Shown here piece by piece: positions 6,033 to 40,778 of a stretch of 64,000 nt of DNA. The position numbers and the translations under genes were made by a program. Source of the DNA: Dipteris shenzhenensis (taxonomy: Eukaryota); assembly GCA_047967505.1 (NCBI GenBank), contig CM106538.1; one strand, given 5' to 3'. The notes below the pieces were generated by a model. That model did no database searches and was not told the DNA's origin. It saw only the letters and a list, made by a program, of their open reading frames with translations. Within the stretch, counting starts at the first letter, position 1. Each line of letters starts with the position of its first letter.

Positions 6033-6439
6033 GAATCCGAATTTCACAATGAGAAGAAACTTCAAGACCCAAGATTCAACAGATAACATGGAAGAGATAA
6101 GAGGGAGTCACCTCGGTCCTCCTTCAATCAAATACTGAATGCTAAGGTCACAAGAGCTCAGAGAATCTCCTCTTGCTGAAGGCCAGGTAGCTGAGAGCTC
6201 AAGGTGGACGATGGACTCTTGTTGTACGGCAAGATCTTGGTACGGCTGGTTGTACAGTAGGATCTTGGTATGGTGGCTAGCATGCTGCCTGGCTGTATGG
6301 AAATTGTACGGCTAGGCTGTAGACTGTAGTATGTACGAAAATGCGTACGGCCACCGGTGGAGCTTGGAGAACTGCGCCTGCTGCCTCGGGAGTCGAATTG
6401 CATACGAATAGCCATACGGGCAGCATCAAAGGCCTCTAA

Positions 6440-6840: not shown

Positions 6841-7210
6841 TGAATCTGTGCCCCCTTCATTAAACCTGCAACCCTAACCGGCTGGAAGGGAACCTCCTAA
6901 AGGATATCATCAGAAGACATATGTAGCCTCCCTCCGATCTAAACATTAAGAACCAGGGCATCCTCATGAGCATCCCACAAAACAATAACCTCTCATTTTA
7001 TAGAAAGAGAGAGAGGGTGGCCTAAATGATAGGCACCTCTCCTACATCAAAGGAGATAACTCCTAAATCAGTGGCACCTCCTCAAGAGGCAACCTTGTAC
7101 TACATCATCACTTGTGTCATGGTCTAGATACCTCATAGCACTAATTCTGCTTCACACAATATCACACACACACACACACACACGCGCACACACACACACA
7201 CACCCACCTA

Positions 7211-7540
7211 TTTTTTTTAAAGTGAAATCTTATATTTATGTGTGGGAAACCTCAAAAGTGGTAAAAACCCACCAATAAGTGTAAGGACAAAATTTACAAG
7301 TAAAACCTCAGAGCAAAAGTCATGAGGCAGTCAAGTAAAAAGTTACATATCAAGCTGGAGGAGGATCAAACACAGCATCCTCCAACTTCAAATCGTTGCT
7401 CTATAAAAACTGATGGAGTGATGTGCCCTTGTGATTCTTCTTGATATAGGCTGATACCTGAAATTTCTAAATCACAGGGTCAAAAACCTGTTGTAACATG
7501 GGATGAAAAGATTCCAGTAAAAAAGGTACTTTTGCATGCT
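7211..7540 (-). mobile_element. ORF1-only retroelement, copy 1 (5'-truncated)
   Basis: T-run at 7211-7218 adjacent to (CA)n at 7163-7204. It shares the 3' UTR (agtgaaatct...cccacca) and ORF end (..FYLTAS*) with copies 2 and 3. Confidence 0.8.
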
Positions 7541-7559
7541 ACTACACACACATACACAC

Positions 7560-9320
7560 TTTTTTTTTTTTAGTGAAATCTTTTATTTTTGTGTGGGATA
7601 CCGCAAAAAAGAGGTAAAAACCCACCAATAAGTACAAATAAAAAATTTACAAGTAAAGCCTTAGAGCAAAAGTCATGAGGCAGCCAAGTAAAAAGTTACA
7701 AGATCAAACTGGAGGAGGATCAAAACAACGTCCTCCAGTTTCAAATTGTTGCTTTGTAAAAATTGATGCAGTGAAGAGACTGCACCATCAATAAAAAGCA
7801 CCTGTTTTTTGCCCTTGTGATTCTTCTTAATATAAGCTAGAAGTCTGAATTTTTGAATCACAGGGTCAAAAACCTGTTGCAACATAGGATGAAAAGACTC
7901 CAGAGAAAAAGAAACCTCTGTATTCCTAAATAGAAAGAGACTCTGGCACAGTCTTCACAGTCATAGGAACGGGATCAATATCTAAACTCTTTGAAGGAGT
8001 ATTGGACGAAAGAGTTGCATGAGATAAATCATGAGTCAGCATGTCAGCTTAGTCGGGATATCAACCTGAGAGAGAGCATGTGAAGCATCCTGTATGATTC
8101 CCTCTGCAAGGGGCACATCCATATCTTGAGGAGAAGAAGGCACATCCATATCTTGACAAGTTGCTCCACCACATCAGTTGAAGAACAGTGGGCATAATAA
8201 AACCCTTTGCCCAGAAAGACAAACGAGGAAATACAATCCGAGCCCACTGCTGCTTCAGCTCACCGACGAAGATGAGTTGTAGAAAGAACTCTGCCCATAA
8301 AGTAGAGACAGACCCCAAACTGTTGAGCTTGTCGAAGACCTAAAACCAGAAGGGCAAAATCCAAAGAACAAACAAAGGGGGAACCCAATGAAGGAACATC
8401 TGTAATAGAGGCTGAACATAACTGGCGCAGAAGATCTAGCTGAAGGGAAGAAGAAGGGCCATCTACGAGATCAAGCTTCGCCGATTTATAAGAGCATGAA
8501 GAAGCCAAAACACCTCGCTTCTGTCGAACAAAGACACGTGCAGGAGGAGACGACGCAGAAGGAGGAGCTGAAACGGAGAAGACAAAAGGAGAATCGGTTG
8601 AAAGACCGGGAGAGGTTGGCTGTTGCAGAGAAAGGACCGGCTATACAAAAGAAATATCCAAAAGCTGTACAGGCAAAGGGTTTCGCACATGGAAAGGCGA
8701 AACAACAGTGTGAAGAGGTACGGATGACCGTACAGCTTGTACGCACAACCGTACAGACTGGATGGACGGTTGTGCAGGTGGTCCAGCATGCAGGCACGGT
8801 ACGGATGAACGCAGAGAAAGAAGCTCAGACGAGGTATAAACACGGTGTTGCAAAACTGGTACGGTAGGTTGCAAGATCTGTACGGAAGACGTACAGGAGG
8901 TCGCAGCTTGGAGTGGCTGGGTAGAGGTAGATTTGCAGAGGGTGTAGGGTCCCATAGAAGAGGGGAGAAAGCTCAAGGAGCCTCTGCTTGCACAAGGCAT
9001 CTGATAATATGTACGAGACTGTACGGGAAAGGCAGGGTTATATAGAGATGTAAAGGTGCTGAAAGTACTGCGTTGTACGGAGGACTGACAGATAAATGTA
9101 CGTACGTACATAAAAGTACAAGGTGAGGGAACTGTACGGGCCTGCGCGTAAGTCTGCACAGGGATTGCGACCCTCTCGTGGCAGCTGGTACGGCCATTCA
9201 GAAGATCCATACGGCGACCGTACGGGCGTACGGACAGAGGGGGAGAGGCCTGCGAGGATATGTTGGCACCTTCGTTCACGACCTCACGCTCTTAGCTAGC
9301 ACCTTCGCTCACCTTCTTTT
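7560..9320 (-). mobile_element. ORF1-only retroelement, copy 2 (internally deleted, GTAC-rich leader)
   Basis: T-run at 7560-7571 after acacacatacacac. ORF remnants SFVFLGKGFYYAHC and QVFDPVIQKFRLLAYIKKNHKGKK...FYLAAS* are present. The 5' end abuts a CT/CA microsatellite. Confidence 0.8.
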
Positions 9321-9451
9321 CTCTCTCACACACACACACACATGCACTCACTTCCTTTTTTTTTTTTGGCCCCCCCCCCCCCCCCCCCCCCCCACACACA
9401 CACCCTCTCTCTCTCTCTCACACACACACCTCTCACACACACACACACACA
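9320..9451. repeat. Compound microsatellite (CT/CA, poly-T, poly-C)
   Basis: Read directly from the sequence. Confidence 0.9.
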
Positions 9452-10799
9452 TTTTTTGGTAAAATCCAGTGTATTTATATTATCATAAATTTACAAGATG
9501 GGAAGTCTCCCACTCACTGACATGAGACTCGAAAAAAGAGCCCAATGGAAAAACTCAAAAACAGGTAGAGAACACTTCAAGGCTAGTGGCATCCAAGTCC
9601 CTTGCAGCAAAACTGTCATATAAGGATTGCTTGAGGGACATTCTGAAGAAAATATATGCCTGAGGAAACTGTTGACCCATCCTAGAATGCAGTCTCTGCG
9701 TCCAAATGGTCCATAGTACCCAAAAGCGAGTCCAGTAAAAGAAGAGGAGGAATGGAGACATCTGAGATGAGAGGCATCCAAACATCCAGAAGAGTTTCCC
9801 AAATCTGATAGAGGGAAACCGAAGCTGCAGCAAATGAGAAACATGAGTGATCAGTATGCGGGATTGTGGGCAAGACCATAATAGGTGAGGAACTGTCTCG
9901 TACTGTTGAGAGCAACGGGGACAGGAAGGGGAAGCAATGCGGCGTGCTGCCAATTTAACCCCAATGGAAAAGGCTCCCACAATACATCTCCAAAAGAAAA
10001 GCCTCTGTTTCAATGGCAATTTGGCTTTCCAGATTTTCATGAGTCGTGATTGCCACCAAGATAAAGGCCTATCCAAATTCCAAAGAGTGTTGGCATGCTT
10101 GTCAATCCATGGCGGTGGAAGAAGAAATCTGTAGACCTTCGAAGAGGTCAGATTGTGCATTGAGAGCGTATGGGTAGAAGGAGGTAAAGAAGTCAAATTC
10201 CAGTCCATTAATCTGTCTTGTGCAAACAGTGGAGGAACTGGAACAAAAGGCTGCAGCATAGCTGAAAGTGTTCTCCAAATGGACCTATGATGCAGGCCCA
10301 AGGAGAATGTCCTGCAAGCTTGTGGAAATGAAAGCATACAACCTTGTTGATCCACAACATCACCAACAAATCTGACGCCCAATTTCATGAGATTGTATGC
10401 TTTAATAGGTGCCTGTAGAGCGAGAGGCAATTCAAACACCTTACTCCAATGGATGCTTTCCAATTGAAAAGAATTACCATGATGAGAAGAAGCACCTGTC
10501 CATTTTGCATATGAGAGAATTCTCTTCCAATCATGAATAAAAGCAGAAGAAACAGGGCAACCAGGAATTTTCCCTTGAAATGTGGACATGACTGCTTCCC
10601 AGTGATCTGTAATCCAATGCCCATATGCATGAGTCGCCATGTTTCCACACATAGCTGCTAACATAATAGCCCATGGCTGTTTTTGCTGAAGAAAATCAGC
10701 AATCATAGTGCTCTTTCGTGCCAACATATGAACCTGGAGATTGAGAATATTCAGCCCCCCATGAGTCTTAGGTGAACAAATGGACTGCATAGGTAGTAG

Positions 10800-10800
<1 letters not shown>
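9452..10800 (-). mobile_element. 5'-truncated LINE family B ORF2 C-terminus (zf-RVT) with poly(A)
   Basis: The open frame 9555-10800 has GGLNILNL and CPRC..YETVPHLLWSC and is homologous to 27489-28895. T-run at 9452-9457. (CA)n lies on both sides. Confidence 0.9.

Positions 10801-10802
<2 letters not shown>

Positions 10803-10837
<35 letters not shown>
10803..10837. repeat. (CA)n microsatellite between two retroelements
   Basis: Pure CA run. Confidence 0.97.
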
Positions 10838-10839
<2 letters not shown>

Positions 10840-10918
10840 TTTTAGTGAAATCTTATATTTCTCTGTGGGAAACTTCAGAAGAGGTGAAAACCCACCATGA
10901 AGTACAAAAGTAAAAAGA

Positions 10919-12208
10919 TTACAAGTAGGCCTTTGGGAAAAACCAGGAGGCTAAGTGAAAGCTAAAACAATAAAAAAGTTTACAAGTCACTAGGGGAGGC
11001 ATCCAGTAGAATATCCTCCACAGTGAGATTGTTTGCTGTTGTAAAGGAACCACATCACCATCAATAAAATGAAGGTGTTTTTTACCCCTGTGATTCTTTT
11101 TAAGATAAGCAGGCACCCAAAATTTTTGAATCATAGGGTCAAAAACTTGTCGCAACCAAGGATGGAAAGTATCCAGGGAAAATGGAGAGGCAGGAGCCAA
11201 ATCTAACAATGGTGTAGCATTTGTATTCAGACCAGCAGTAGCATCCATAGTATCAACCCCAGTCTGAGTATGTTTGGCTTGCAAATCCACATCTGTTGCC
11301 ACTACACAATCATGAACAATATCCAAAGGAGAAAGATCCACTTGCATTTCAATAGAGTGCGTCTCATCAACCGGTAAGGCCTGCTGAGAGTCAATTCCAA
11401 CCAAGGAGGATTGTTGAGCTGAAGAGGACTCTTGAGAATCGGAAGCATTAACACCAGAAGATTGCCATGTTTCAAGCATAAGTGTATCCGGCATTGATAG
11501 AGCCTGAAACGGATTTGACAAAGGAACCGAAAGAGACGATGAAATGATTTCTTTTCCTGGGGGGTGTACCCTTCTCCATTCTTTTCTTGTTGTGCTCAAC
11601 TGTTGCATCTTATCGAAATGGAGAGGAGTAGTAGTCTGAGGAACAACATGAGCAGATTGACATGATTGTGAAGGGCAGCTCTGAGCAAAATGACCAATCT
11701 GTCTACACTTGTAGCACACATTTGGAAAGGAAGAAAAAGATAAGAGAATGCAAAGATGATCATCCAAACCATAATCAATATCCAAACATGAAGGTACGGG
11801 TTGCTCCATATCCCACAAAATACAAATTTGGATATCTCTGCTGAAGACCAAAAAATCCTGCTTCAGAAGATGCAGTACTCTCCCCAAAAGAGCTGCAATA
11901 GAGGATATGTGCAGGAGGAGAGGTACTGGCAAGGCTTTTAAGGTGACCCATGGAAGGTAATAATGAATGAGATTCTGAGCCGGGTCGAAAAGTGGGTCCC
12001 AAGGCATGACATAAGCAAAATATCCACCTCCGTGGACACCTGCCATATTAACTAGCTGATAAACTGTCTCCACATCAACACAATCAGCATAATAAAAACC
12101 CCTGCATAGAAAAACAAAGGAGTTGAATTTATTTGATCCAACGGCTGCTCTGTCGACCATGCACATAGCATAGGTGTTGTCATAACTTGTCCCATAAAGT
12201 AAAGACAA
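10919..12208 (-). CDS. L1-type ORF1-like protein (DUF4283-like region plus CCHC knuckle), frameshifted near both ends
   Basis: RGFYY, VMPWDPLFDP, PWVTLKALP and CYKCRQIGHFAQSCP motifs are typical of plant L1 ORF1. Confidence 0.8.
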   Translation of the reverse strand: MSLLYGTSYDNTYAMCMVDRAAVGSNKFNSFVFLCRGFYYADCVDVETVYQLVNMAGVHGGGYFAYVMPWDPLFDPAQNLIHYYLPWVTLKALPVPLLLHISSIAALLGRVLHLLKQDFLVFSRDIQICILWDMEQPVPSCLDIDYGLDDHLCILLSFSSFPNVCYKCRQIGHFAQSCPSQSCQSAHVVPQTTTPLHFDKMQQLSTTRKEWRRVHPPGKEIISSSLSVPLSNPFQALSMPDTLMLETWQSSGVNASDSQESSSAQQSSLVGIDSQQALPVDETHSIEMQVDLSPLDIVHDCVVATDVDLQAKHTQTGVDTMDATAGLNTNATPLLDLAPASPFSLDTFHPWLRQVFDPMIQKFWVPAYLKKNHRGKKHLHFIDGDVVPLQQQTISLWRIFYWMPPLVTCKLFYCFSFHLASWFFPKAYL

Positions 12209-12778
12209 ATACCGAGTTGTTGTCCCTCAGAAAGACTCTGCAGAAAGGATTTAGAGGAAAGAACCCGGCGCATGGAAGTTGGCAATCAAAGATGGGAGGT
12301 CAACTCAAACACTAAAAAGTTCAGCCCATTGCTTTGAAGAGGCAAGAAAGAGGGGGACCTGAGGAGGTAGAGAAGAGAAGGCAGCTGGTTAGAAGGCAGT
12401 AGAGGCTAGAGCAACAGGGAGACCTGTGGGTTGGAATGCAGCAGGTTAGCAGCTAGGAGGGAGAGAGGGGCCAGCAAGGAGGGATGAGGGAGGTGTGGGG
12501 CTGGAGGTAGAGGGAAGGTCAGTAGAGAAAGGAACTAGCTAGCAGAGAGTGTTGTGGTGAGTAGGGAAGGAGTTAGCTGCAGCAAGGAGCTGTGGGAAGC
12601 AGAGAAGAGGAGTTAGCAGTAGCAAGGAGCTGTGGGTATGCAGAAGAAGGCATGTGGACAGCAGGGGAGCAGGCGGATCAATTAGTGGATGCAGGAAGAC
12701 AGTAGGACTCAGGAGAGCAAGTAGGGGAGTTAGAGGCTGCAGGGAGGCAGCATAAAAGTAGGCAGAGAAGGTTAGCAG

Positions 12779-23352: not shown

Positions 23353-26345
23353 TTCTAAATTCTTTGGAAGAGCAGCCTTTATCTGTAAAGGCTCTTTGTC
23401 TTGCTCTAGTCTCCCATTTAGCCAGTTTCCTGTGATCATTTAGTTTAAGACAATGTCTAGCCTGGCATAGTGTTGTTTGCTCATGCATGGACAACGAACG
23501 AAGATAGCTGAGTTCAGTGAGGTCTTGACAAGTGAATTTGGCCTGAGCAATGGTTTCCCTCAGAGTCTTCATGTAAGACTTGCCATAAGCTCTAATCACA
23601 ACTTGCATTTTGGAAACAAAAGAATCCCAGGCATCACAATATGAATATGGTTGCGAGAAGACAGAGAATGAGATGCTTCAGTAACCATGGCCTTGAAAGC
23701 AGCCTGTTGCAAATAGCTATTGTTTACGATCAGATGTCACCTTTGTGGCAATCTCTCATTTGACATAGCATGAAAGGATAGCTGCAACCATAGAGGTGCA
23801 TGATCTGAATGCACTAAGGCATAGTCAATCCACATTTTGCATGTAAAATCCCCATTTTGTTGTGGAGCTACACTATACCATCGATCCAGACGTGCCTGAT
23901 AAGAAGAAATGGCATTATGTTGGAAGGTGTATCCAGGTGACAAAGGCTGCAATTCCTTCCAAAGGTCAACCAAATCCAGATGCATCAGTAATTGGGACCA
24001 TGCATGCCTTTCAGGAGTTAACATATGATCATGTCTGGAGGTATTGTCACCCTGTTGTGGAGCATTATTGAAATCCCCACATATGAAGGCATGATATCTC
24101 CATGGATATTGTTGCATGGCATCCCAAATTGCAGTTCTTTCTCTAGAGGATTGAGGTGCATAAATAGAAGCAAATTCAAACACCTCTCCTCGAATAATGC
24201 ATTGAAGAACAAGCCATCTGCCCTTGTTGTCATTTAAAGCAATAACTGGTTGAAGCTCATGTTTGATCAAAAGGACTACCCCTGAGAAAGAGTGCTCCCC
24301 AGCATAGAAAATATCATAACCACAGTAGTGTCCTGTCTTTCTTGCATAGACGTGTTGGTTGTGTTCTTGTAATGCCACTATGTAAGGCTGAAATCTATTG
24401 ATGTACAGCCACACAGATTTCCATTTCCTATTGTCACACAGCCCCTGGACATTGAGTGTAAAACATTTGATATCAGCAGTCATATTTACAGATATTTATA
24501 GTAATATAACAACTATGTACAGCAGCAAAATTCATGATGTCAGCCCTGCATTTCTATCTCAGGGTCAAGGCCTCTCCCCTCAGAAGAAGTAGCCACCTGA
24601 GGAGTAGACAGCAAAGCAGCAACCTCTTCTTCAGGGAAGAGTGTTCTGCTAGCTGTCACTGCAGGCCATGTGATCCCAATTCCTGTATTGACCTCTGGGG
24701 TGTTTCCACTAGAAGACGCACCATTCCAAGTGCGAGGGGGTGGAAGTCTTTGAGCAGAAATAACTTTTCTTGGACTTTGCCATCCATCAGTTGGAGGTTT
24801 GTGTCCTTTTGTCGAGGGTTGAATAGCAGGAGGTGAATGTGAAAAAACATTCCCATTTGAAACCACTAGAGCTTTGCCTTTATCCTGATTTCCAGAAAAC
24901 TATCTACTATCTTTGTTTTTATTTGCAATGGAGGTAGGAGCATCCTTAGTAGGCATTTGAACCGACAAAGTGGCAGGAGGCATTTTATGCTGATTCATTG
25001 GACACTGTGAAGCCATGTGTCCAAATTTTTTGCACTCAAAACAAGCCCCTGCAAATAATCCCCATTTCAGTTTATAAAAAGCACTTCCCATGTCCACATT
25101 ATTCACCGTGACTGAATAAGAGTCCGGTGTGGGATTTTTAGTATCCCAGAGAATGCAAAATCGATTCGAGTTGCCATTAGGCCGTGGTGGGCAGACCACT
25201 TTGCCTAAAGATGCTGCAATTTTAGGCAAGAGTGAGGCCATGCATTGTGAGAAGTCTACAACTTCAACCCAGACCGGGCATCTGTGTCGGATTAAAGCGT
25301 GAAAATCTCTTGTGGGAGACCATGGCAATACATGCACCATTTGCTGCCCAAAATAGAGAGGCGAATGTTCCAAAAGCATTTGTCTGTGTATCTCATCCAC
25401 CGTGATAACCTCAAAAAACCCCCTGGCTGCATAGTGTACTTTGCAAACAAATGAGCCAGCCACTGTGCGAGTCAACCAGTTGCCTATCTTTGTGGCAGGT
25501 GGCATCTGGCCTGGAAAAAATAATATGACTGTAGTTTTAGCATATTCTTTGACTGGATCCACAATTTCATCTACTTCAACCATGAGGCCAACTGAAGGAA
25601 CCAAGTCTTTCCACTCTTTCCTTGTGTCTGCAAATCCTTCATGCATGACATCATAGACCAGTTGGGCCTCAAGAGTATCATGTACCGGGTCATGCTGACC
25701 CTCAGCTTGCTTTTGCTTCTTGCAATGAACCGAACGCTCCTTTTGAAACGTTTTTTCATAGGAATATTTAGCCATAGCTTTGTAAAAAGTGGAACTCAGA
25801 AAGGAGGTACTTGTAAAAGGGTAGTGGAGTAAAAAAACCAGTCCCAAAAAAATGCCCACAGGAAGCCCACAAAGAAGAGAAAAAGAGTATATTTGTAAAG
25901 AGATAGAAGGGAAAGAGGGATGTAGAGGTCGAGAGAAGATAATAACAGTTTTGTAGAGGAAGAAGAGAGAAAAACCAGTAAAAAAACCCAGATGAACTAT
26001 ATTTCAGAGGAAAAAGGAAGATTTTGGCGATGGGAAAGGTGCAGCAGACCCAAAGACTGAAGAGGAGAAAAAACAGGAGCAAAAGCCTTCAAAATCAGCA
26101 CGTGGATGTAGTCCGGAAGCAAAACCCTGCGTGGAAACGATCCAGGAACCGGAGATGGACTGGGAGCAGCAAAACTGTAGCAAGCGGAAATGTCCGTACA
26201 GGCCGTACACCTGTACGGAATCCGTACGGAGCTCGGACGGGCTGTACGGCTGGTGATAAATGCTCCAGATCACTGGTTTTTGGGCTCTGATGCAGCGCAG
26301 CTGGGAGCTGAGGCTCACGGGCTGGTTGCTTGAGGCTCTAGAGCT
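23353..26345 (-). mobile_element. LINE family B 5' portion: leader, ORF1 and APE endonuclease; RT missing
   Basis: ORF1 at 24540-25859 has RGFFEV, VLPWSP and CFECKKFGHMASQCP, with a premature stop at 24900. The EN at 23737-24483 has TLNVQGL, LQEH, IYAP, GDFN, RLDRW and SDHAP. The EN is homologous to 29761-30525. The 5' end abuts CT/CA repeats. Confidence 0.9.
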
Positions 26346-26442
26346 CACACACCTCTCTCTCTCTCTCACACACCACCTCTCTCTCACGCACCTCCCAAAC
26401 ACATACACACACACACACACACACACACTCTCTCTCTCTCTC
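26346..26442. repeat. CT/CA compound microsatellite
   Basis: Read directly from the sequence. Confidence 0.9.
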
Positions 26443-26575
26443 AAGTACCAAGTGCATATGGGATATCCCAAAGTGACACGTGGCACTCACACATGACTCA
26501 CACATGAACTACTACAAGATCTCCTAGTACAACTCACCAACCAAACCACACAGACACACATACACACACACACAC

Positions 26576-27390
26576 TTTTTTTTTTTTGGTAATATCCAGT
26601 GCAATATATTTATATGCTCATAAATTTACATGATGGGAGGTCTCCGAAATGGAGAGTATCTTAAAGAACAGAAACATAAAAAGAAAAGCTCTATGCAAGA
26701 AGCATCCATATCACCCTCATGGCAGGCATCATATAAGGATTGCTGCAATGAGGCTCGGAAAGATTCATATGACTTGTGAATCTGCCGACCCAAGTATGCC
26801 AAATTATGCTCACTCCAGATTGTCCAAAGAGCCCAATATCTCACCCAAGAGAGAAATAGTGAGTATTGAGACAAAGACCTCATAAATCTGCCAAAGAGCC
26901 AGAAATGTTTCCCAAATCTGTGACTCGGGAAACGGAGCCGAAGATAATCTGAAATTCTCCTGAGGAGGATCCTAGAACATGGGCAGTGCCAAAGCAAATG
27001 AAGAACAGTCTCTGAAGGAGCCTGACATCTTAAACATGTGGATGGTGCAATGCGACGTTTAGCAAGTGTGACCCCCACTGACAATGTCCTTGTCATACAT
27101 CTCCAAAGAAAAAGTCTTTGTTTCAATGGCATTTTACACTTCCATAACATCCCGAGATTCTTCCGCCACCATGAGAGGGGCTTCCTTATATGCCACGGGG
27201 AATTAGCATATTGTTGAATCCATGGAGCAGGTTGAAGAAGCCTGTAGGCTTTGATGGAGGTTAAGGCAGGAAGAGGAACAGGATGAGTGCATGTAGCAGA
27301 GGGTTGCAATTGCCAATCCGTAAGCCTGTCTGTGTTAGCCATTGGAGGAACAGGTAAAAAAGAATGTAATAAATCAGCAATTTTCTTCCA
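26576..27390 (-). mobile_element. 5'-truncated LINE family B 3' end
   Basis: T-run at 26576-26587 after (CA)n. zf-RVT ORF at 26626-27342. Highly similar but not identical to 27398-28210. Confidence 0.92.
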
Positions 27391-27397
27391 TACACAC

Positions 27398-30300
27398 TTT
27401 TTTTTTTTGGGTAATATCTAGTGCATATATTTATATGATCATAAATTTACATGATGGGAGGTCTTTAAAATGGAGAGTATCCCAAAGTTCAGAAGCATAA
27501 AAAGAAAAGCTGTATGCAAGAAGCATCCATATCACCCTCATGGCAGGCATCATACAAGGATTGCCACAATGAGGCTCGGAAAGATTCATATGACTTGTGA
27601 ATCTGCCGACCCAAGTATGCCAAATTATGCTCACTCCAGATTGTCCAAAGAGCCCAATATCGCACCCAAGAGAGAAATAGTGAGTATTGAGACAAAGACT
27701 TCATAAATCTGCCAAAGAGCCAGAAATGTTTCCCAAATCTATGACTCGGGAAACGGATCCGAAGATAATCTGAAATTGTCCTGAGGAGGATCTTAGTACA
27801 CGGGCAGTGCCAAAGCAAATGAATAACAGTCTCTGAAGGAGCCTGACATCTTAAACATGTGGATGATGCAATGCGACGTTTAGCAAGTGTGACCTCCACT
27901 GACAATGTACCTGTCATACATCTCCAAAGAAAAAGTCTTTGTTTCAATGGCATTTTACACTTCCATAACATCGTGAGATTCTTCCGCCACCATGAGAGGG
28001 GCTTCCTTATATGCCACAAAGAAATAGCATATTGCTGAATCCATGGAGCAGGGTGAAGAAGCCTATAGGCTTTGATGGAGGTTAAGGTAGGAAGAGGAAC
28101 AGGATGAGTGCATGTAGCAGAGGGTTGCAATTGCCAATCCGTAAGCCTGTCAGTGTCAGCCACAGGAGGAATAGGTAGAAAAGGATGTAATAAATCAGCA
28201 ATTTTCTTCCATATAGACATATGATGCATTCCCAATGCATAGGAAGCAGTGGCTTGAGGAAAAGATAAGACATATCCCCGATCATCTACCACATCATGTA
28301 TGTATCTAATTCCCAATTTCATGAGATTGTAGGCCTGAACAGGTTCCTGTAAAGCTAGCGGAATTGCAAAAATGGCACTCCAATGAATACTTTCTTTCCT
28401 CATTGAGTTTGTCCCCGAGCAACTATCAGGAGCCCATGTGACCTCAGAAAGTACTTGTTTCCAGTCAAGTATCAGAGCAGTAGAGAAAGGACAGCTAGGT
28501 ATCTCCCCTACAAATCTGCCAATGACAACCTCCCAATGATCAATAGTCCAATGACCATAAGCACAAGTCCTCATGTTGACACACATGGATGCTAGCATAC
28601 AAGTCCATGGCTGTTGTTGGCGGAAAAAAGTATGCAGCATAGTCGCCTTCCTTGCAAGCACATGATATCTTATATTGAGGACATTAAGTCCACCATGCAT
28701 CCTAGGAGAGCATACCATTTCCATCTTCATCAGTCTCAATGCTTTCACAGCAGTTTTTGCCCTCCATAACATCTCCATAGCTTGAGACATGAAGGCGGAA
28801 ATATCCCTGGAGGACCAATGTATCAAAGGCAAATAGAACTGGACATAGGACATTACAATGGACTGTACTATTCTGAGCCTGACATGAAGAGGCAAAGTAG
28901 AAATCGTCCAGTATTATAGTTTATGTTGAAGCCTTTGGAAGATCCATTTTAGCTGTTGCTTCCTGGTGATATGCCATCCTATGGGATATCCCAAATGCCT
29001 GACTACATCTTTGGAATGCACCACCTGACCTAGCCAAAGAATAGAATGCCAATCACATTGTGTCAGGGGAAGTAATTTAGATTTGTCAAAATTGACATGC
29101 AATCCATCTGCCAAACCATACAATGAAAGAGTGGTCATAAGCATGTGAACTTCCCGGGGAGAATTCTTTGGCATAAAGAAGGAATCATCAGCATATGCTT
29201 GTGCCAAAAAAGATGCAGCCCCAGGGATTTTAAGACCAGTCATCTGTCCTGTGTTTGTAAGATGATCAAGATACATCAAAAGGGGATGAGTCGCAATGGC
29301 ATAGAAGAGAGCACTAAGAGGGCAGCCCTGCCTAACTGATCGACCCAATGTCCATGACTGAGACAGATGACACCCAAGAATGCACTGAGAAGTAGAGTTA
29401 GAATAAAGCCAGTAAATTGCATTTGCTATCTTGGGACCAAAGCCTAACTTTGTCATGATTTGAGAGATAAAATCCCATTGAACAGTATCAAATGCCTTAG
29501 CAATATCCACCTGCAATATAAGGACATCTTGATGCAAATACTTAGCATATTCAATTGCAGTCAAGGCATTGGAAATATTATCATGGATTTGTCTTCGCGG
29601 CACAAATCCATACTGATGAGGATGAAGTCCCGCATCCAGTATCCTGTGAAGCCTATGCACAATCATTTTGGTAATGAGTTTGTAAACTACAGGCATCAAA
29701 GTAATAGGCCTCCAATCTGACATATTGTCACATAGATGTTTTTAGACATGAGTTTTTCTTTCAAGTAGCATGCAGACCCTGGAAAAAGGCTTTTGATGAG
29801 CAGCCCTTATCCATGAGGGGCTTCATTCTTGCCCTAATCTGCCATTTGTGCAATTTCCTTTGATCATTAACAGTCAATTTAATCCGAGCATGTGAAAGGG
29901 AATCATTTTCTGATTCAGAGAGAGGCCTTAAATGTGAAAATTCAGTCAATTGTTGTGCTGTCCTTTTTGCCCATTTAACCTCATTCCTCCATTTAGTCAT
30001 ATGCCAGTTTCCATACTCCCTAATGACATTCTGTATACGAGAGACAAAACTGTCCCAGGCATAATCCATGTCCTCCTGGGCATGCAAAGGCAAGGGATGA
30101 ATTGCAAGTCTTATCATTTGCTGGAAATAGTGATGTCGGAAATAAACCTGATTAACATGCAATAATCTACTGGAAAGGGGTGGCAAATCATCCAGTGGCA
30201 TACCAAGGTGCAAATTCATCCATAATGGGGCATGATCTGACAAGCCCAATGAGAAATCTATAAGGAGATGAGGGCTAAAATCTGCATATTGTTGTGGGTA

Positions 30301-30525
30301 AAACAAATACCATCTGTGAAGCCTTGCCCATTGTGTAGTAAGTGCATTATGATGAAAAGTATATCCAGGCACTGATCCTTGGAGAAGCAGCCATAAATCT
30401 TCAGCCTGCACAGAAAGAAGCATGCTATCCCATTTCTGCCTTTCCAATAATAGCATATGAGATCTTGAAGTGGTGTTATCTCTTGGCAGAGGGGAATTAT
30501 CAAAATCTCCACAGATGAATGCACA
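27398..30525 (-). mobile_element. 5'-truncated LINE family B ORF2 (partial EN, RT, zf-RVT) with poly(A)
   Basis: Motifs GDFDN, SDHAP, WRPITL, DIAKAFDTV, RQGCPLS, YADD and GGLNVL. An internal deletion lies near 29725-29760. T-run at 27398-27408. The 5' junction falls in (CA)n. Confidence 0.93.
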
Positions 30526-30726
30526 CTTACACACACACACACACATATACATATATATAAATATAGATATACAATATACATATACATACACATACAAATA
30601 CACATATACATGTACATGTACATACATTGATGTATGCATGTATGCATGCATGTATGTATGTATGTATGTATGTATGTATGCATGTATGTATATATGTATA
30701 ATGCATATGTAAACTGATGGAGTCTC

Positions 30727-30763
<37 letters not shown>

Positions 30764-31046: not shown

Positions 31047-31085
<39 letters not shown>

Positions 31086-32180: not shown

Positions 32181-32292
32181 GTCGATTATGCAACATATCC
32201 TATTGTCAATGTATAATAAGTTCAAATCGCAGGAACTTGGGTTTGCCCCTGTACAATATGGACATCAAAAGATTCATGTATATATGTAACAG

Positions 32293-32377: not shown

Positions 32378-33029
32378 GTAAGACACTTTTGATACTGTCT
32401 TAAAAAATATTTACTTGAAAATCAGTGGGAAAGAAAGTCAAGATGTCTACATATATGTACTTAAACGATCGTGTGCTGTAGTAGGCCAGATTCACAAACC
32501 GAGACCACCTGCATTATTCCTTGAAGGATGGGTTCGCAGCTTTTGGTCTCCCAAGGTCTAGTAGTCACGACCATCCGTTTCTTAGAAATGGTTGTATTGT
32601 GTTCATTTTTGAAAAGTGTGAGATGGTTACAGAAGTGGTCCACAAAGGAACCTGGACGATTAGGAATCAACCACTATCAGCTCAGCTGTGTGAACCTTCT
32701 TTTAGTCCATACTGTCCTCCTCCGTCCAAAGCCCCTATCTGGGTGAGTTCCCTGACCTTCCGCTTTTTCTTTTTCCTTAAATTGAGACCCTTTGTTCTCC
32801 GCTGGGCCAATTCCTTGGAGTAGAAACAGAGAAGTTTATCAACCCGAGAGGCAACCCCCAAGCTTGTGTCCTGATGTAATTCAAAAGGACATCTCTTGTG
32901 CCCCTGGCCTTGTCCTTTTTTTTTTTTTTTTTTCATGAAAAAGACTTCTATTAAGTAAGAACAAAAACCCGCGAGAGCAAGCTCAAAGCGGAATACATCA
33001 TGAAATCATGAGGATAATAAAAAACCCCC

Positions 33030-34208
33030 TCAGAGTGAGGTGGAAAGAAACCAAGGCTGAGGCTGAAAGTGCCATCTCAACCCTGTAGTAGATTCAGAGA
33101 AGAAAGGAGAATCCTTCCATTCCCTGAAGAAAGAAGCCCTCCTAGCTGAGGCTGCACGGGAGTCCCCCTGCATACCCGTCCATACGGCCATCAGAGTGTG
33201 TACGATGTCTGTCCAGATACTAGCCAATGTGTGCGAGGGATGAACCTGAGTACCCTCCATAGCCTCTGTGCATCTGGATCTCCAGATATGCCAGGCTGCT
33301 ATGCTCGCTATAATCTCCCAAGAAGTATCCACAGAGGCATGTACAGCTGTAAAAGGACGGTGTGGAACCACATCCAACGAGCAGAGCTCAACCCGATGAT
33401 GTCGAACCGAAATGGCCCGGGAGGAGTCAAGTCCCTCATAGAAAACCTGAGGTCCTGTAAGAGAAAGCCAAGCCACCGAGCCCCAAGTCATAAAGAGTGG
33501 GGAATGGGCAAAGTGACTGAAGATCCTAGCTATCCCCATCCAAATCAATCTCGCCTGTCTGCAATCCCATAAGCAATGCTGAATAGACTCCGAAGTAGAA
33601 AGGCAACGAGGGCAAGTAGGGTCGGCTCCGAATCTGGACCTCCAAAGGTTCACTGCAATCCCTCCATGAATAGAAAGCCAAAAGAAGATAGTGATCTTTC
33701 TATTCCTGTGGGATTTCCAGAGCCTCCTCCAGAAGTACCTCTGCTGATCCGCAATAATACCAAAAGTCTCCCAATGAGGAACTCTGGAGGGTCTCCAGCC
33801 TCTACTACTGAGCTGAAATCTCCTGGCATTACTGACCGTGTAACGAAAGAAGGGGATGGTCTTCTCTCGATGCCCCGCGTCAATCCACTCCCACTCTCCG
33901 GGGTCCCACTGTAAATACTTGATGGGAACTCCTCCATAGAGCCAAAGTCTCCAAGACCCGGTGGAGAGTAACTGGGGGTCAGGGTCTAAGAACCACTCTG
34001 AATCTGATCCCTGCATCAAAAGGCCTACGACCCTGATAGGCTGAAAAGCAGACTCAAGCAATATATCATCTGTAGATCTGAGCAATCTGCCACCATCCTG
34101 GACACTGAAAACCAAAGCATCCTCTTGTGCACCTCGGAAGGCTAAGACCTGAAGTGGAACCCCGCCTCTCGAGAAAGTACCTGCCCAAGTGGAGGTAGTG
34201 AGAGGCAT
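33030..34208 (-). CDS. LINE A ORF2 C-terminal part (zf-RVT)
   Basis: Open 392-aa frame with FWRRLW..IFFWL, CPRCLSTSESIQHCLWDC and WHIWRSRC. It ends just before the 3' UTR and poly(A). Confidence 0.88.
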   Translation of the reverse strand: MPLTTSTWAGTFSRGGVPLQVLAFRGAQEDALVFSVQDGGRLLRSTDDILLESAFQPIRVVGLLMQGSDSEWFLDPDPQLLSTGSWRLWLYGGVPIKYLQWDPGEWEWIDAGHREKTIPFFRYTVSNARRFQLSSRGWRPSRVPHWETFGIIADQQRYFWRRLWKSHRNRKITIFFWLSIHGGIAVNLWRSRFGADPTCPRCLSTSESIQHCLWDCRQARLIWMGIARIFSHFAHSPLFMTWGSVAWLSLTGPQVFYEGLDSSRAISVRHHRVELCSLDVVPHRPFTAVHASVDTSWEIIASIAAWHIWRSRCTEAMEGTQVHPSHTLASIWTDIVHTLMAVWTGMQGDSRAASARRASFFREWKDSPFFSESTTGLRWHFQPQPWFLSTSL

Positions 34209-34299
34209 ATCATCTGTGTCGCCCCACCACTTGCACGTTGTTCACCAGAGGGGGAGTCAAGGACGTGACATTGAAACTGCACAGTGGCACTTTGAGCCT

Positions 34300-34960
34300 G
34301 AGCTGCTGCTCCTCCCCGTTCCCCTGCTGCTCCCCCTCCCTCAGCCCGTCTCTCTCCCCCCTCAGCCTGTCCCTAGCCCCTCCCTGCTGCTCCCCCCCCT
34401 CCCCCCCTGCTGCTCCGCCCCCTCCCCCTGCCTGTCCCTCGCTCCCTCCCTCTGTTCCCTGCTTCCGCCCCCTCCCCCCTGCTGTCCCGCCCCCTCTCCC
34501 TGCCTCCGTCCCCTCCCCCCTGCTGCTCCGCCCCCTCTCCCTGCCTCCGCCCCTCCCCCCTGCTGCTCCCCCCTGCCCCCTGCTGTCCCGCTCCCTCTCC
34601 CTGCCCCCGTCCCCTCCCCCCTGCTGCTCCGCCCCCTCTCCCTGCCTCCGCCCCCTCCCCCCTACTGCTCCCCCTCTCCCCCTGCCTCCGCCCCTTCCCC
34701 CCTGCTGCTCTGCTCCCTGCCTCCGCCCCCTCCCCCTTGCTGTCCCGCCCCCTCCCTTGCTGTCCCGCCCCCTCCCTGCTTGCTCTCCCGCCCCCTCTCT
34801 TCCTCTCACTCCTCCCTTTCTTCTCCTCTCCTTTCCCCTCCCTCCCTCTCAGCTTGCCCCTCTCCCCTCTCAGCCCCAGCCCCTCTCCTCCTTCCCTCCC
34901 CTTCCCCCCTGCTTCCTCCTAGCCTCCTTTCCCCTCCCTTGCCCCTCGCAGCTTTTTTGG
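34300..34960 (+). repeat. C-rich degenerate tandem repeat (CCCCCTGCTGCT-like) forming the LINE A leader
   Basis: Almost devoid of A. A homologous tract lies at 22770-23350 on the opposite strand. Confidence 0.9.
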
Positions 34961-35013
34961 AACGGAAGGAGCTTTTTTTTCTCTTCGAGTCGGCCTCCTC
35001 ACCTTGATTGGCG

Positions 35014-36651
35014 ATGGATTCCCCGTCAGCCAATCCTACTCCATCTCCACCGGCCGCGAAAACTATCACTTTCTCTAAAGACGAGTTGCAGCAGCTCAAG
35101 AAGGATGTAGAGATTGAGTGCTCTACCACTTTGCTAGCACGCATCTTCGGGTCTCACCCTTCCAGATCCCAAGCCAGAGACTGGATGCTTGCGGCTCTCC
35201 CCCCAGACCTCGCTCCTCGATTGGTAGATGTTCACCTTCTGGGACGAGGTTTTTTCCAGGTTGTTTTTGACACTCCAGAGGCTGCGAGCACTATGCTCAA
35301 GGCCGAGTTTTTACACCTGGGACACAGGAAGATCTTCTTTGAAGCCTTTCACCTTGGTTTCGACCCAGTTGAGGCAGATAAGAAATTCTTCTCGCTCTTC
35401 ATCAGGTTCCCCGGGCTTCCCCAGGTTTACCATCGACTTCTTTCTGTTATTGGGGAGCATTTTGGCGCAGTTGCTGAGATCCCACCCCTCCCTGGGTTGC
35501 CATTGACTGCAGCAGAGGCAACCAAGGCTGATGGGGTTCCTAGAGTTAGGGTCCTTTGCAAGGATCCTAACCTCGAGATGGACCACGTCATGATACAGCG
35601 CCCGGATGGTTCCTTTTTTCGCCAAAGAGTGGAGATTTCAGGCAGGCAGGACCAGTGCAGGATTTGCAGGACCTCGAGACACTTTGCCAGGGATTGTCCC
35701 AGGAAGAAGAAAAGGCCTAAGAAGGCCTCTGGTACAGCTACCGCCTCAGGGCATCGACAGGGGGGACAGGGGGGGGGATTAGACCCGGCACTTGCCCCTC
35801 GACCTCGGCAGAGGGGTGGTACAGGTCCAGCTCCTGCTCCTCATTCTTCACGTGGCGGTCCTGCTCAGTCAGGTGGTGGTACAGGTCCAGTACCTATTCC
35901 TCGGCCTCATCAGGGGGGTGGTACAGGTCCTGCTCCTCGACCCCCACCTCCCTCAGGCACACACGACGCTTTACAGTGGGTTCCAGTACGTGTGCAGGTC
36001 CCTCCTTCAGTTCACGAGGGTACCTTAGTAGACTCTGCTTCACCTCGAGCTGTCCTTCCTGTCTCACCTTGCACAGTCCGAGACGCTGAAGCTTCGACCT
36101 CCTCCCCAGTTGCAGCTTCTTCCTTAGATCCAGCACTGCCAGATGTTCCTCTTGAGGATGGAGAGATTTCCGCGGCTGGGCAGACACCGGGTAGAGAGCC
36201 TTCCTCACTCCCTCCCTTGGACAGGGGGAAGGGGATAGCTTACACTGTTGATCCTCTTCCCTCACAAGGGATCCTTCGTACTCCGGTGTCTGGATTGCTC
36301 CACAGGAACTCGTTTTCAGCCTTGGCAGAGAGTTCAGATTTCCCAGAGGAGGAGTTTGTGCCCGCTACTTTTGGGGAGCCAGTGGTTGGATTTCCTATTG
36401 ACAGGGCTTCTTCTTCAGGTGCCAGGATTCTTTCCCCTATTGACTTTCTCCACTGGGTTCCTTCCCTCCTTCCAGGAGGTCTTTCCCTGTTGAGGGGTTT
36501 GTTTCCGCCACTAGGTCGGGTAAGGTGTTCCACTCTACATCCTCCCGTCGATGAGGATTATCAGTTGGAGCCTAGGTGGCGTCCCACATCGCCGCCGCAG
36601 ACAGCTGATCCGGGATCAGCTTCATCCAGGTGTTACTGGGGGTCCCATTGA
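35014..36651 (+). CDS. LINE A ORF1 (DUF4283-like plus CCHC knuckle, Pro/Gly-rich tail)
   Basis: LGRGFFQV, FIRFPGLP and CRICRTSRHFARDCP motifs. It overlaps the ORF2 start by ~100 nt, so the true stop may have been altered. Confidence 0.88.
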   Translation: MDSPSANPTPSPPAAKTITFSKDELQQLKKDVEIECSTTLLARIFGSHPSRSQARDWMLAALPPDLAPRLVDVHLLGRGFFQVVFDTPEAASTMLKAEFLHLGHRKIFFEAFHLGFDPVEADKKFFSLFIRFPGLPQVYHRLLSVIGEHFGAVAEIPPLPGLPLTAAEATKADGVPRVRVLCKDPNLEMDHVMIQRPDGSFFRQRVEISGRQDQCRICRTSRHFARDCPRKKKRPKKASGTATASGHRQGGQGGGLDPALAPRPRQRGGTGPAPAPHSSRGGPAQSGGGTGPVPIPRPHQGGGTGPAPRPPPPSGTHDALQWVPVRVQVPPSVHEGTLVDSASPRAVLPVSPCTVRDAEASTSSPVAASSLDPALPDVPLEDGEISAAGQTPGREPSSLPPLDRGKGIAYTVDPLPSQGILRTPVSGLLHRNSFSALAESSDFPEEEFVPATFGEPVVGFPIDRASSSGARILSPIDFLHWVPSLLPGGLSLLRGLFPPLGRVRCSTLHPPVDEDYQLEPRWRPTSPPQTADPGSASSRCYWGSH

Positions 36652-39600
36652 TATATTATTTATTCAAGAGCACAAGCTGGATTATAGAGATTGTGCCAAG
36701 TCAGGCAAGTTACTTTCAGGACATACTTTTTGGTCGCCTGCATTGGGCACTAGGGGAGGCACTTCTATTTCAGTTTCGCAGTCGGTTCTCCCCTTAGTTG
36801 TTGGGCACGGAGTCATTATCCCCTCTAGAGCTCAGTGGATTATTCTCTTGAATGGAGGGCGTAAGGTTGGCTTCCTCAACCTATATGCCTCCAACATTAG
36901 AGGGGAACATGTCCTTATGTGGAAGACTTTGCTCTCCTGGGCCCCCATTGTGGATTCTTGGGTGATTGGAGGTGACTTTAACATGGTCGAGTTACCTTCA
37001 GACAAAAAAGGGGGTAGAGAAGGCGGACTTCACTCTTTGGAGAGAGCAGCTTGGGATGCCTTCCTTTTCCATTTCTGTGGCAGAGATACTTGGTGTGATG
37101 ATGCCTTTCTTATTCAGCCACAGTCCCTCCTGTTCTCTTGGTCGAACAGGAGGCAACAGATGCCTATTCATGCACGCATTGACAGATTTTATGTAGATGA
37201 CTGGGCACTAGACAGAGGTGGATCGGTATGCATTGCTGCGGGGGTTTCCACCTCAGACCATTTTCCTGTTGTTCTGGCTATCTCAGAGCCTCACTTGAGA
37301 GGCCGATCTGCCAGCATCAGGATCCCAGATGCCTTTTACACAGAGGAGGACCTTACAGAGGCAGCCCTACGGGTATGGTTTGCTCATGTCCAGGGAGGGC
37401 AGCCACATCCTTCACATTTAGCCGCTGCCCTCTCTGGTATTAGCGACTTTTACTGCTCAGTTGCTTCTACCAGGAGACGAGATATTCTCAGACGTGAGAT
37501 TGGTGTTCGCCAGCAGTTAGCAGCTTTGCAAAGGGAAGAGCAGAAACGGCCTTCAGATGCTTGGATTCAGGAGCGCCTTGCTGCAGCGAGGGCTCATCTG
37601 CAGTTATTGCTTGATCAGAGAGCAGAGTATGCCTTTCATGCACGGGAGTCCTTCTGGATTCAGATGGGTGGTAGAGTCAATAAACACTTCTTCTCTACTC
37701 TTGGCCCTAGACATAGTAGAGAGAGTGTATCTCAGCTTATTGACTCACATGGGGTTTTACAGACAGAGCCAGATGACGTCTTACGCATAGCTTCAGATTT
37801 CTATGCCACCCTCCTTACTGCTGATCCTGAGACACACGATATAGAGGATGCTAGACAGGCTATTTGGCAGAGTATCCCAGTGTTGGTGAATCCGGATATG
37901 CATGTTCTACTTGACGCACCTTTCACCAACACAGAGTTCAGGACTGCACTTTCAGCCCTTCACAAGGGCAAGTGCCCAGGTTTAGATGGCCTCACCCCGT
38001 CTTTTTTCATTGCATTTTGGGATATGATTGGAGACTATATTACTTCAGCCATGCAGGCCATTTGGGACTCTGGCGAGATGCCTGAATCGCTTACAGAGGG
38101 CCTCATCCACCTTATCCCAAAAGGAGGTAGCAGAAATTTATTGTCCCAGTGGAGGCCTATCACACTTCTGGGGACTTGTTACAAGATTCTGGCCAAGGCT
38201 ATCAGCCTCCGATTGCAGCCACTTCTCCCTGATCTTATCCACGACACTCAGACGGGATTTGTGCATGGCAGAAGTATTTTTTATAACATTTTTTCTTTCT
38301 GGGAAGCTTCAGAGTGGGCCATGCAGAGTGGCCAAAATCTTGCCATTCTACTGTTGGATTTTGAAAAAGCTTATGACAGAGTAGATTGGAGTTTTTTGGA
38401 GGGCACCCTTCTACGCTTTGGATTCACTGATGTTTGGATCAGAGGTGTTTCCTCTTTGTACAGATCAGCCCATAGCCAGGTACTTATTGGTGGGGTAAGG
38501 GGTGAGAGATTTCAGATTTCGAGATCAGTCCGTCAGGGATGCCCCCTTGCTCCTTTCCTTTTTTTATTCGTGGCCGAAGCTATGAGCATCTATGTTAGAT
38601 CTCAAGATGACATCTTTGGGCTGAGACTTCCTATCAGAAGAGAAGAGGAGCTGCTTGACAGTGAGTTGGCTGATGACACAGCGATTTATTTGGATGCCTC
38701 TCCACAGACATTGACTTCTTTCAGGACAACATTGGATTTATTTTGCTTGGCGGCAGGGGCGCAGATAAATTGGCATAAATCCAATGGCTTTTGGATCAGT
38801 GATGAGGACACTCCAGTTTGGGGACTTGACATAGGGTTCACTTGGGTTCAGAGGGGTGTGCCTATCAGGTATTTGGGCTGCCAGGTCGGCTTGGGTATTT
38901 CTACCACGCAGCAGTTTGCTCCCGTGTTGGAGAGCATCAGAAGGAAGCTTCTCTTTTGGAGCTCAGCCAAGCTGGATCTTGCCTCTAGAGTTGTGGTGGT
39001 CAACCAGGTCCTCTTGGCCACGGCCTGGTTTATTTGTTCATGTTGGTGCCGTTCTAGGGACTGCATCATTCAGCTCAGAAGACCGATCAGGAACTTTCTC
39101 TGGAGTGGGCTTGATGGCACAGCAGATGCCTTAGCCAGAGTGGCTTGGGAGACCCTCATCCTCCCTACACAGGATGGGGGTCTCAATATTATTGATCCAG
39201 ATTTACAGTGCAGAGCCTTACTTTGCAAGATAGTGGTGCGAGGACTTATGCCAGGACAAGAACCGTGGAAGGACTTTCTTATCAGCAGCATACAGAGGTG
39301 CACACCTTCCTCAGGAGGAGACTGGATGAGCAGTGTTAGATGGATTTTCACCTCAGCACACCTCAGATCACCTTCTTCCCCTCTCATGGTTGCCATTCTG
39401 AAAGCTTGGGCTAGTTTCAGAAGCTCTCTTCGGAGGATTCCTCCTTCCTCCCGGGAAGAGATTGATAGGCAGCCCATCATGTGGAATGACAGTATTTTAG
39501 ATGATCGTGGCAGACCACTGGGTGCCTCACTCTACATGCAGTGGGCCAGGTGGGAGAGGGGACCTGCTTCTTCTTTGGGATCTTGGAAAGCCTTCCGTAG

Positions 39601-39668
39601 GCTTCCAGAGGAAACCAAGTCAAGGTTGACAGGACATCTCAGAGGGAGTGCAGGGAGGATCTTGCAGA
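36551..39668 (+). CDS. LINE A ORF2 (APE endonuclease plus RT), broken at the inversion breakpoint
   Basis: Motifs IQEHK, GGDFN, RIDRF, SDHFP, CPGLDG, WRPITL, DFEKAYDRV, RQGCPLAP, LADD and YLG. The frame runs on into flanking DNA to 39721. Confidence 0.93.
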
Positions 39669-40778
39669 CTGGCCTGTCCTTTGAGTATGGCAGAAGACAA
39701 TCTTGTTTTGGTTGTAGTTGAGGCTACATTCCATTAGTTGTAGATTAGGAGTGGCCATCAAGTGCCTCAATCCCCGCTAGAGTCTTATCTCAGTTCCAGC
39801 GGTGGATAAGATCAGCGATAGTTATCATGTAAATCTTCAGACTCCCGGGTCTCTATTCGAGCAGTTCCTTTCTCAGAGGTACAGGGGCTCAGGGCATCCG
39901 GATAGGCCGGCTTCAGGGCGGATCACTCGACTTACGATCACATTTTTACACTTAGAGGGATCATTGAGGAGGCCAGACACAGGAGACAGAGAGTATATTG
40001 TTGCTTTGTGGATTTCCGCAAGGCATTTGACACCGTTCCCCGCGCCCAACTCATCAAACGCCTATAGGAGTTAGGCTACGACTCGGTGATTATCTGGGCA
40101 GTAGTAGCTCTCTATGAGCGGGTGACGGGGCAGGTCAGGATTGGCACCAGCTGGAACCCAGAGATCACGAGCACTATCGGAGTCAAACAAGGATGTCCCT
40201 TGTCACCGACTCTATTTGGCCTCTACATCGACGAGCTCGAGACCACCATCAGGACACTCGGAGGTGCAGGCTGCTCTCTTGCGGAGGCTGTTATCCAGAT
40301 TCTCCTTTACGCAGACGATGTAGTACTACTATCCTCTTCTGCTACTGGTCTTCAGTGACACCTAGATGGACTTCAGGTCTTCTGTGATACACATGACTTG
40401 AAGGTCAACCTTGGGAAAACCAAGGTGATGATCTTCAACACTTCCAGACCCGCTATGCATCGAGAGCAGTTCCTCTTCGCCGGTGACCCTGTTGAGATAG
40501 TTGACTCTTACACATACTTGGGCGTTGTCTTCTTAGGCCCGATCTTCACGATGCGCTCGGCGATGCAGGTCAAGATCAATCGGGGATACGCCGCTCTTGC
40601 CAGGCTGGAGCGACAGTGCTACCACTCCCATTGCCAGGACCTGCGGACCAAGTCTCTCCTTTTTGATTCTTTGGTCCGCCCAGCAGGCATGTACGGTAGC
40701 CCTTGGTGGGGAGTCGACCTTTCAGACATAGAGTGGGCTCGAGTCGAGCGCCTACAGATACTAATGTTTGCTCGGATG

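Follow-up and report, generated by a model that had tools for sequence, protein, structure and literature searches.

Retroelement arrays on (CA)n microsatellites in Dipteris shenzhenensis: probable targeting of CA by a fern L1 lineage and an ORF1-only passenger

The window analysed here, 64,000 nt of contig CM106538.1 (assembly GCA_047967505.1) from Dipteris shenzhenensis, is plant transposon-rich DNA with several long interspersed nuclear elements (LINEs), frames of long terminal repeat (LTR) elements and a hAT-type transposase remnant (DUF659). Two arrays in it, arrays 1 and 2, consist of poly(A)-tailed retroelements set head to tail on CA microsatellites, and they contain copies of a LINE lineage (family B) and of a second family (family C) that carries only the first open reading frame (ORF1); a further LINE lineage of the window, family A, serves as an internal control. 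The analysis covered the window and contigs from public runs, and a preliminary description of the window was checked against them. Coordinates are collected in Table 1.

Table 1. Members of the two arrays, the tracts between them and the family A control element (positions in the window)
Feature	Position	Strand	Remarks
(CA)n tract, left edge of array 1	7163..7210	.	one CG interruption; 8-nt spacer before the first tail
E1, family C (ORF1-only type) 3′ end and poly(A)	7211..7541	-	5′-truncated; 3′ end 87% identical to E2, 75% to E4
CA linker	7545..7559	.	E1 5′ junction to E2 tail
E2, family C with its own 5′ region	7560..9320 (~9320)	-	ends in CT/CA
Compound CT/CA tract	9321..9451	.	includes T12-GG-C24 run
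E3, family B LINE 3′ part	9452..10802	-	5′-truncated; open frame 9558-10790, zf-RVT
Perfect (CA)17	10803..10837	.	E3 5′ junction to E4 tail
E4, family C, ORF1-only	10838..12778	-	ORF1 frame 10922-12226; zf-CCHC, DUF4283 below cut-off
B′, 5′ half of family-B-lineage LINE	23357..26346	-	ORF1, APE endonuclease, linker; 3′ half lost
APE-type endonuclease frame of B′	23740..24495	-	all catalytic motifs; candidate targeting enzyme
CT/CA tracts	26346..26575	.	around short LTR-like fragment, 26443-26488
B1, family B 3′ end	26576..27392	-	5′-truncated; then 5-nt CACAC linker, 27393-27397
B2, family B	27398..30523	-	truncated inside endonuclease; reverse transcriptase 28917-29741; C-terminal frame 27492-28913
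Family A LINE	32904..39683	.	5′ inversion; target-site duplication of 14/15 nt, non-repetitive (32904-32918 and about 39669-39682)

Array 1 reads CA, E1, CA, E2, a CT/CA tract with T12-GG-C24, E3, (CA)17 and E4, all four elements lying on the minus strand and none nested inside another. The four poly(A) elements described here previously were recovered, but as one family B LINE and three family C copies rather than as four LINEs; for the elements at 7211, 7560 and 10838, membership of family B is ruled out by their 3′ ends, mutually 75–87% identical and distinct from that of family B, and the element at 9452 alone in this array belongs to family B. E3 and B2 share 62% identity in DNA and 52% in protein, and the array mixes two families with copies just 62–87% alike. 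E4 has ORF1 followed by the tail, with endonuclease (EN) and reverse transcriptase (RT) absent, and a decayed ORF1 remnant of E2 (8169-8325) aligns with the start of the E4 ORF1. The 5′ region of E4 is split by a copia-type element at 12779-15345 (LTRs 12779-13039 and 15043-15345, short internal region), beyond which it apparently resumes at 15346-15443; by eye, a near-perfect 5-nt duplication flanks this insertion. An ORF1 with a 3′ region and poly(A) but no EN or RT was found in E4 (10838-12226), and the 3′ end in three copies, so that family C, judged by its sequence, is a HAL1-like ORF1-only element. Its ORF1 is 27% identical to that of B′ (E 3e-14) and has no match of note to that of family A (E 0.057); no homologues of residues 1-200 were found, a weak negative because of the word filter in the search. 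The T12-GG-C24 run (9356-9393), missing from the preliminary list, lies beyond the E2 5′ end with CA not directly adjoining, and a T10-G7 run (15444-15460) lies beyond the E4 5′ end; both could be ultra-short insertions or untemplated additions.

Array 2 reads B′, CT/CA tracts, B1, a CACAC linker, B2 and TT(AC)8. The ORF1 of B′ (24903-25775, minus strand) contains DUF4283 (E 1e-8) and zf-CCHC at the cut-off; the 5′ end of B′ enters CT/CA and that of B2 enters TT(AC)8. The EN frame of apurinic/apyrimidinic endonuclease (APE) type, cited earlier at 23737-24483, is real, but it belongs to the separate broken half B′. It keeps the N, E, Y, D-x-N, T, D and H motifs of L1-EN, and its identity of 54/104 to the EN remnant of B2, compared with 50/197 to the family A EN, places it in the B lineage as another subfamily. 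The closest solved structure is L1-EN; the predicted model (mean predicted local distance difference test score 56, low confidence) supports the APE fold only. Among longer proteins no homologues of this EN were found, again weak evidence given the word filter. The hairpin loop, by which nicking specificity of L1-EN is shaped (PMC1950540), is conserved between B′ and B2 and different in family A.

B1 and B2 differ at 44 of 804 aligned sites, and each carries private changes. B2 departs from almost all reads at 168 sites; for 23 near-fixed ones, hand-picked from 40 of these, B1 matches the read majority in 20 cases, B2 in 2 and neither in 1, which indicates that B1 was not copied from an already decayed B2. 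A recent local duplication was accordingly rejected, and the pair may stem from two independent insertions or from a tandem event after which each copy decayed on its own. Within the tracts before B1, the fragment at 26443-26488 lies between CT and CA and is 81–83% like the copia-type LTR (12779/15043), and the target tract of array 2 may have arisen within an LTR. At the other side, the B2 5′ junction adjoins a tandem-duplicated (~345 bp, 92%) compound AC/ATAT/ATGT/GA microsatellite block (30528-31199), beyond which comes a purine-rich stretch with weak similarity to the E4 and family A 5′ regions.

The anatomy of family B is that of plant L1s. A plant-type ORF1 (DUF4283/RRM with a CCHC knuckle) is present in B′, the ORF2 domains Exo_endo_phos (E 3e-10), RVT_1 (E 6e-29) and zf-RVT (E 3e-11) sit in separate broken copies, no intact copy occurring in the window, and both poly(A) tails and 5′ truncation occur. 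The nearest named relatives of its RT and C-terminus are proteins of Adiantum nelumboides (53–61% identity). In a quick IQ-TREE phylogeny of RT sequences (141 rows after dropping 13 short ones and 2 without RT match; midpoint root; supports from the Shimodaira–Hasegawa-like approximate likelihood ratio test, SH-aLRT, only), for which 30 of 150 matches were looked up and 13 had an organism name, family B, flagged for unusual composition, fell in an 18-row clade (SH-aLRT 99) in which the six rows with names come from Adiantum and Ceratopteris. This group is nested in a 76-row clade (SH-aLRT 98) with Riccia, Chara, Closterium and the angiosperm Centaurea, of which family A forms another branch; the frog row P0078, the sole row named as animal, lies outside the plant clade. 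The proposed phylogenetic check placed family B with plant L1s, in an RT tree that contained no named Tx1 or R1 references. Taken by its sequence features, family B is a high-copy, fern-type, L1-clade poly(A) lineage; its DUF4283 ORF1, zf-RVT and plant-L1 neighbours argue against membership of the R1 clade. Since it groups with plant L1s, the R1 elements Waldo and Mino and the fish Tx1 elements, invoked previously for comparison, hold as analogues rather than demonstrated relatives.

The T-runs of families B and C (7211-7218, 7560-7571, 9452-9457, 10838-10843, 26576-26587 and 27398-27408) were scored as CA-adjacent loosely, with three CA units within 16 nt before the T-run, or strictly, with CA units touching it. 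Adjacency held for 6/6 tails under the loose and 5/6 under the strict definition, confirming the six coordinates given earlier; the five direct tails end in ...ACAC|T (four) or ...CACA|T (one), and at 7211 an 8-nt spacer, CCCACCTA, separates T-run and CA run. None of the four family A tails (2275, 2961, 32916 and, on the minus strand, 56311) is CA-adjacent, so that this internal control also stands (Fisher p = 0.005 for loose, 6/6 vs 0/4; p = 0.048 for strict, 5/6 vs 0/4), nor is any of the remaining 79 T-runs of at least 6 nt on both strands of the window; the loose test has a background of 923/128000 positions (0.7%). The 5′ junctions near 9320, 10803, 26346 and 30526 run into CT/CA as first reported, and the truncation points 7541, 10802, 27392 and 30523, at unrelated element positions, all enter CA, the last with no other tail behind it. 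The window's (CA)5+ runs (n = 10) are all on the plus strand and all inside the two arrays, and the orientation of family B and C elements relative to CA is fixed.

Family A behaved as an ordinary L1. The copy with its tail at 32916 is near full-length, with an ORF2 frame of 1065 aa still open, and has its 3′ part on the minus strand to ~34240 and its 5′ part on the plus strand from ~34300 to 39668, an inversion which, with its target-site duplication, matches twin priming by an ordinary L1. For the copies at 2275, 2961 and 56311, the search for target-site duplications gave best matches of 6–10 nt. With a non-repeat duplication in family A and family B and C tails on CA, two L1 lineages in one region differ in target.

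Beyond the window, parts of B2 were present in 20/22 listed public runs, up to 0.21 of its words. Contigs of four runs were placed along 27300-28110 (381, 465, 447 and 6 per run), and in three of these runs most of the element had summed contig depths, which are not copy numbers, in the tens of thousands, as a high-copy family would give. Among 23 of the 98 loose-end rows, one was a tail row, in which three contigs of run X2 continue into ~(AC)8 (agreement 0.9) with a consensus flank that by eye is unlike every CA flank of the window, and no non-CA flank at the tail was found. Eleven of these rows were right-hand loose ends, five of which simply continue the element; among the remaining six, one, from run X2, passes at 28103 from the element into CA-rich sequence, a 5′ junction. 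A few independent loci outside the window show the same junction; this external support is real but small. With target specificity taken as one target class in >20% of flanks (PMC4494074), CA made up 6/6 window tails and 3/3 contigs of the single tail row, at few independent loci. Run X11, from a second organism, gave the six contigs, with the tail not covered; depth on the C before the T-run was 69–100% of first-T depth in three runs, which would suit CA beyond the tail in most contigs that cross it, but this figure has uncontrolled end effects and is not counted as evidence. Exact matches to a conserved 3′-end motif of family B numbered 0 in metagenome contigs and 0 in viral contigs, while a protein-guided scan found two loci in metagenome contigs, a decayed fragment (L001) and a distant L1 of 23% identity (L002), with the tail in neither, and no locus in viral contigs.

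The arrays on CA are real: their domains, the sequences at the junctions, the orientation, the high abundance and the difference from family A are all established. Their probable cause is that a fern L1 lineage, accompanied by an ORF1-only passenger, targets CA. CA targeting by whatever route appears quite likely, and to the specific prediction that the family B ORF2 endonuclease prefers (CA)n/(TG)n we assign a probability of roughly 0.55. In target-primed reverse transcription, copying of the RNA poly(A) adds T's to the nicked strand, and since the strand here reads (CA)n and then a T-run, the nick would have been on the CA strand. The EN would cut that strand, mostly after C (4/6 tails), and the 3′-OH would prime reverse transcription on the RNA poly(A), so that orientation would be fixed and the sense strand would read element-(A)n-(GT)n. 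If the second nick also fell within this tract, CA would be left or duplicated on both sides and the site would stay usable, and the next insertion could thus reuse it, giving non-nested head-to-tail arrays in one direction with mixed families and ages. Direct recognition of CA by the EN, and renewal of the target through insertion, are what we infer from these junctions, target duplications not being delimitable inside a dinucleotide run. Family C may have been mobilised in trans by a B-type ORF2 of its partner LINE, inheriting the target, as its shared target and the ORF1 similarity to B′ suggest.

Fixed orientation, a target common to families with unrelated 3′ UTRs (untranslated regions) and the short CACAC linker at 27393-27397 could also be accounted for by RNA guidance, in which a promiscuous EN is combined with transcripts that read past the poly(A) into (GU)n, pair with nicked (CA)n and prime there, so that the offspring of a GT-sited master would home to GT. 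RNA-DNA pairing has been considered a possible extra determinant of integration (PMC1950540). We regard this as rather unlikely, since a separate read-through master would be needed for each family and subfamily, and T-runs vary from 6 to 12 among copies as for fresh polyadenylation, although slippage could do likewise.

Several observations weigh against EN-directed targeting of pre-existing CA. No long empty CA tract occurs in the 64 kb, which is the strongest point against pre-existing targets and fits elements that make or lengthen CA, by 3′ transduction, RT slippage or untemplated end synthesis, with the arrays built by template jumping or local duplication and without any prior target. 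In the same direction, 190/238 bases of (CA)4+ runs lie within the arrays, the private changes of B1 and B2 leave room for a single tandem event with separate decay, and (CA)n-ending L1s exist in some green algae (PMC3747384). Nevertheless, we consider an element-born origin of CA decidedly unlikely. The sense strand reads (A)n and then (GT)n, opposite in polarity to a (CA)n tail, and the poly(A) between element and CA argues against CA being a terminal repeat of the element itself; the strongest counterpoint is CA after 5′ truncations, including the one at 30526 where no other tail follows. Moreover, successive families landing beside earlier CA ends would be targeting anyway.

The remaining points against EN-directed targeting concern independence and exceptions. 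The DNA between the arrays consists of LTR elements and a family A fragment, so both arrays are perhaps one locus; given that B′ has lost its 3′ half and that what separates the arrays was inserted later, they may be a single interrupted array, and the in-window sample may be less independent than it looks. With loci as units (two arrays vs three family A loci), Fisher p is 0.10. Two family A tails (2275 and 2961) also lie in the same direction, 0.7 kb apart. The spacer of the 7211 tail, the E4 5′ end near 15443 without CA, the single tail row among the contigs and the five right-hand loose ends that are not CA-rich belong here too, the last of which could stem from nesting, from divergent subfamilies or from truncation outside CA. 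Ferns, furthermore, are rich in simple repeats, with 15.5% vs 1.2% in seed plants (LINEs 2.2% vs 0.5%; PMC4607520). The survival of random LINE insertions in one microsatellite-rich, low-recombination cluster, as put forward for Drosophila Waldo-A/B near CA repeats (PMC3812793), would suit a window that holds perhaps a single such locus, but it predicts neither single-base adjacency, nor one orientation, nor the exclusion of family A, nor the same junction at other loci, and such passive accumulation is highly improbable.

Microsatellite targeting itself is known from Mino, Waldo and Kibi and has apparently arisen independently in plants, where the system of families B and C probably works, by analogy, like Mino, Kibi and Tx1/SINEU. 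In insects, MinoAg1 (AC) and WaldoAg/Fs (ACAY) are, like family B, APE-type non-LTR elements in AC-containing microsatellites (PMC3812793); they are R1-clade elements (clade after the title of Kojima and Fujiwara 2003), from which family B differs in its plant-L1 anatomy (DUF4283/CCHC ORF1, EN-RT-zf-RVT, poly(A)) and in grouping with fern and liverwort L1s. The Tx1-clade elements Kibi (TC)n and Koshi (TTC)n (targets also given in PMC3812793) and crocodilian Tx1/SINEU are, as family B, L1-group APE elements with microsatellite targets, and their tandem insertions, which sandwich target-site duplications and include non-autonomous passengers with the same target, resemble the B/C arrays; Tx1, however, is described as an animal clade with the targets TC, TTC, TTCC and TTTC and not CA (PMC4494074), whereas family B lies within a streptophyte-plant clade. 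Descriptions of target-specific APE retrotransposons come mainly from the R1 and Tx1 clades of animals (PMC4640811).

Plant L1s share with family B the DUF4283-type ORF1 (PMC5203782) and the APE-RT-zf-RVT ORF2, and a poly(A) tail is found in 224/233 flowering-plant L1 families (PMC3747384); they differ in that the parts of the literature covered report no microsatellite target for them. HAL1 (half-L1) is, as family C, a non-autonomous ORF1-only L1 derivative, but one described from mammals (PMC5753468), whereas family C belongs to a fern, has an ORF1 of DUF4283/CCHC type and apparently targets CA. The plant SaTar MULEs (Mutator-like elements), Micron and MuTAnT likewise form microsatellite-targeted, non-nested arrays of unrelated families; they are DNA transposons with the target (TA)n (PMC5907723), and LINE, SINE and non-LTR do not occur as whole words in that source. 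Zepp/ZeppL of green algae are targeted green-lineage L1s in tandem arrays of 5′-truncated copies, but their target is their own copies, nested, at centromeres and without a microsatellite (PMC8226300). Algal Penelope-like elements target (C)n microsatellites (PMC9977147), and the part of PMC9387920 covered contains nothing on LINE targets. In the full-text literature searched, outside of which lie Repbase, most subscription journals and all supplements, no report of a microsatellite-targeted LINE in land plants was found, although a database may contain such an entry. REM1 of Chlamydomonas is said to have a CA/TG target.

If the targeting holds, specificity would have arisen independently in this plant L1, its EN would be a natural variant for studying how the hairpin loop controls target choice, and fern CA microsatellite markers would often be located at element junctions. 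It would also offer a link to the fern excess of simple repeats and LINEs. More tentatively, and with some doubt on our part, a land-plant L1 might have independently evolved a (CA)n-specific endonuclease and, with its ORF1-only passengers, formed a self-renewing, target-duplicating system that feeds the simple-repeat and LINE content of ferns.

Elsewhere in the window, a copia-type element at 40779-47030 with LTRs of 204 nt that are 100% identical, and hence very young, sits inside a putative RTE-like LINE remnant, labelled so by its motifs, and several direct repeats of 0.4–0.9 kb with 88–94% identity occupy 48076-54559. Regions dense in GTAC/CGTACGG are common to unrelated elements near their 5′ ends (6220-6420, 8700-9250, 26140-26260 and 41280-41380) and are possibly convergent promoter motifs. 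Two short exon-like stretches on the plus strand at 32000-32400 bear what we take to be a resemblance to alpha-mannosidase coding sequence, which suggests a host gene around or close to the elements.

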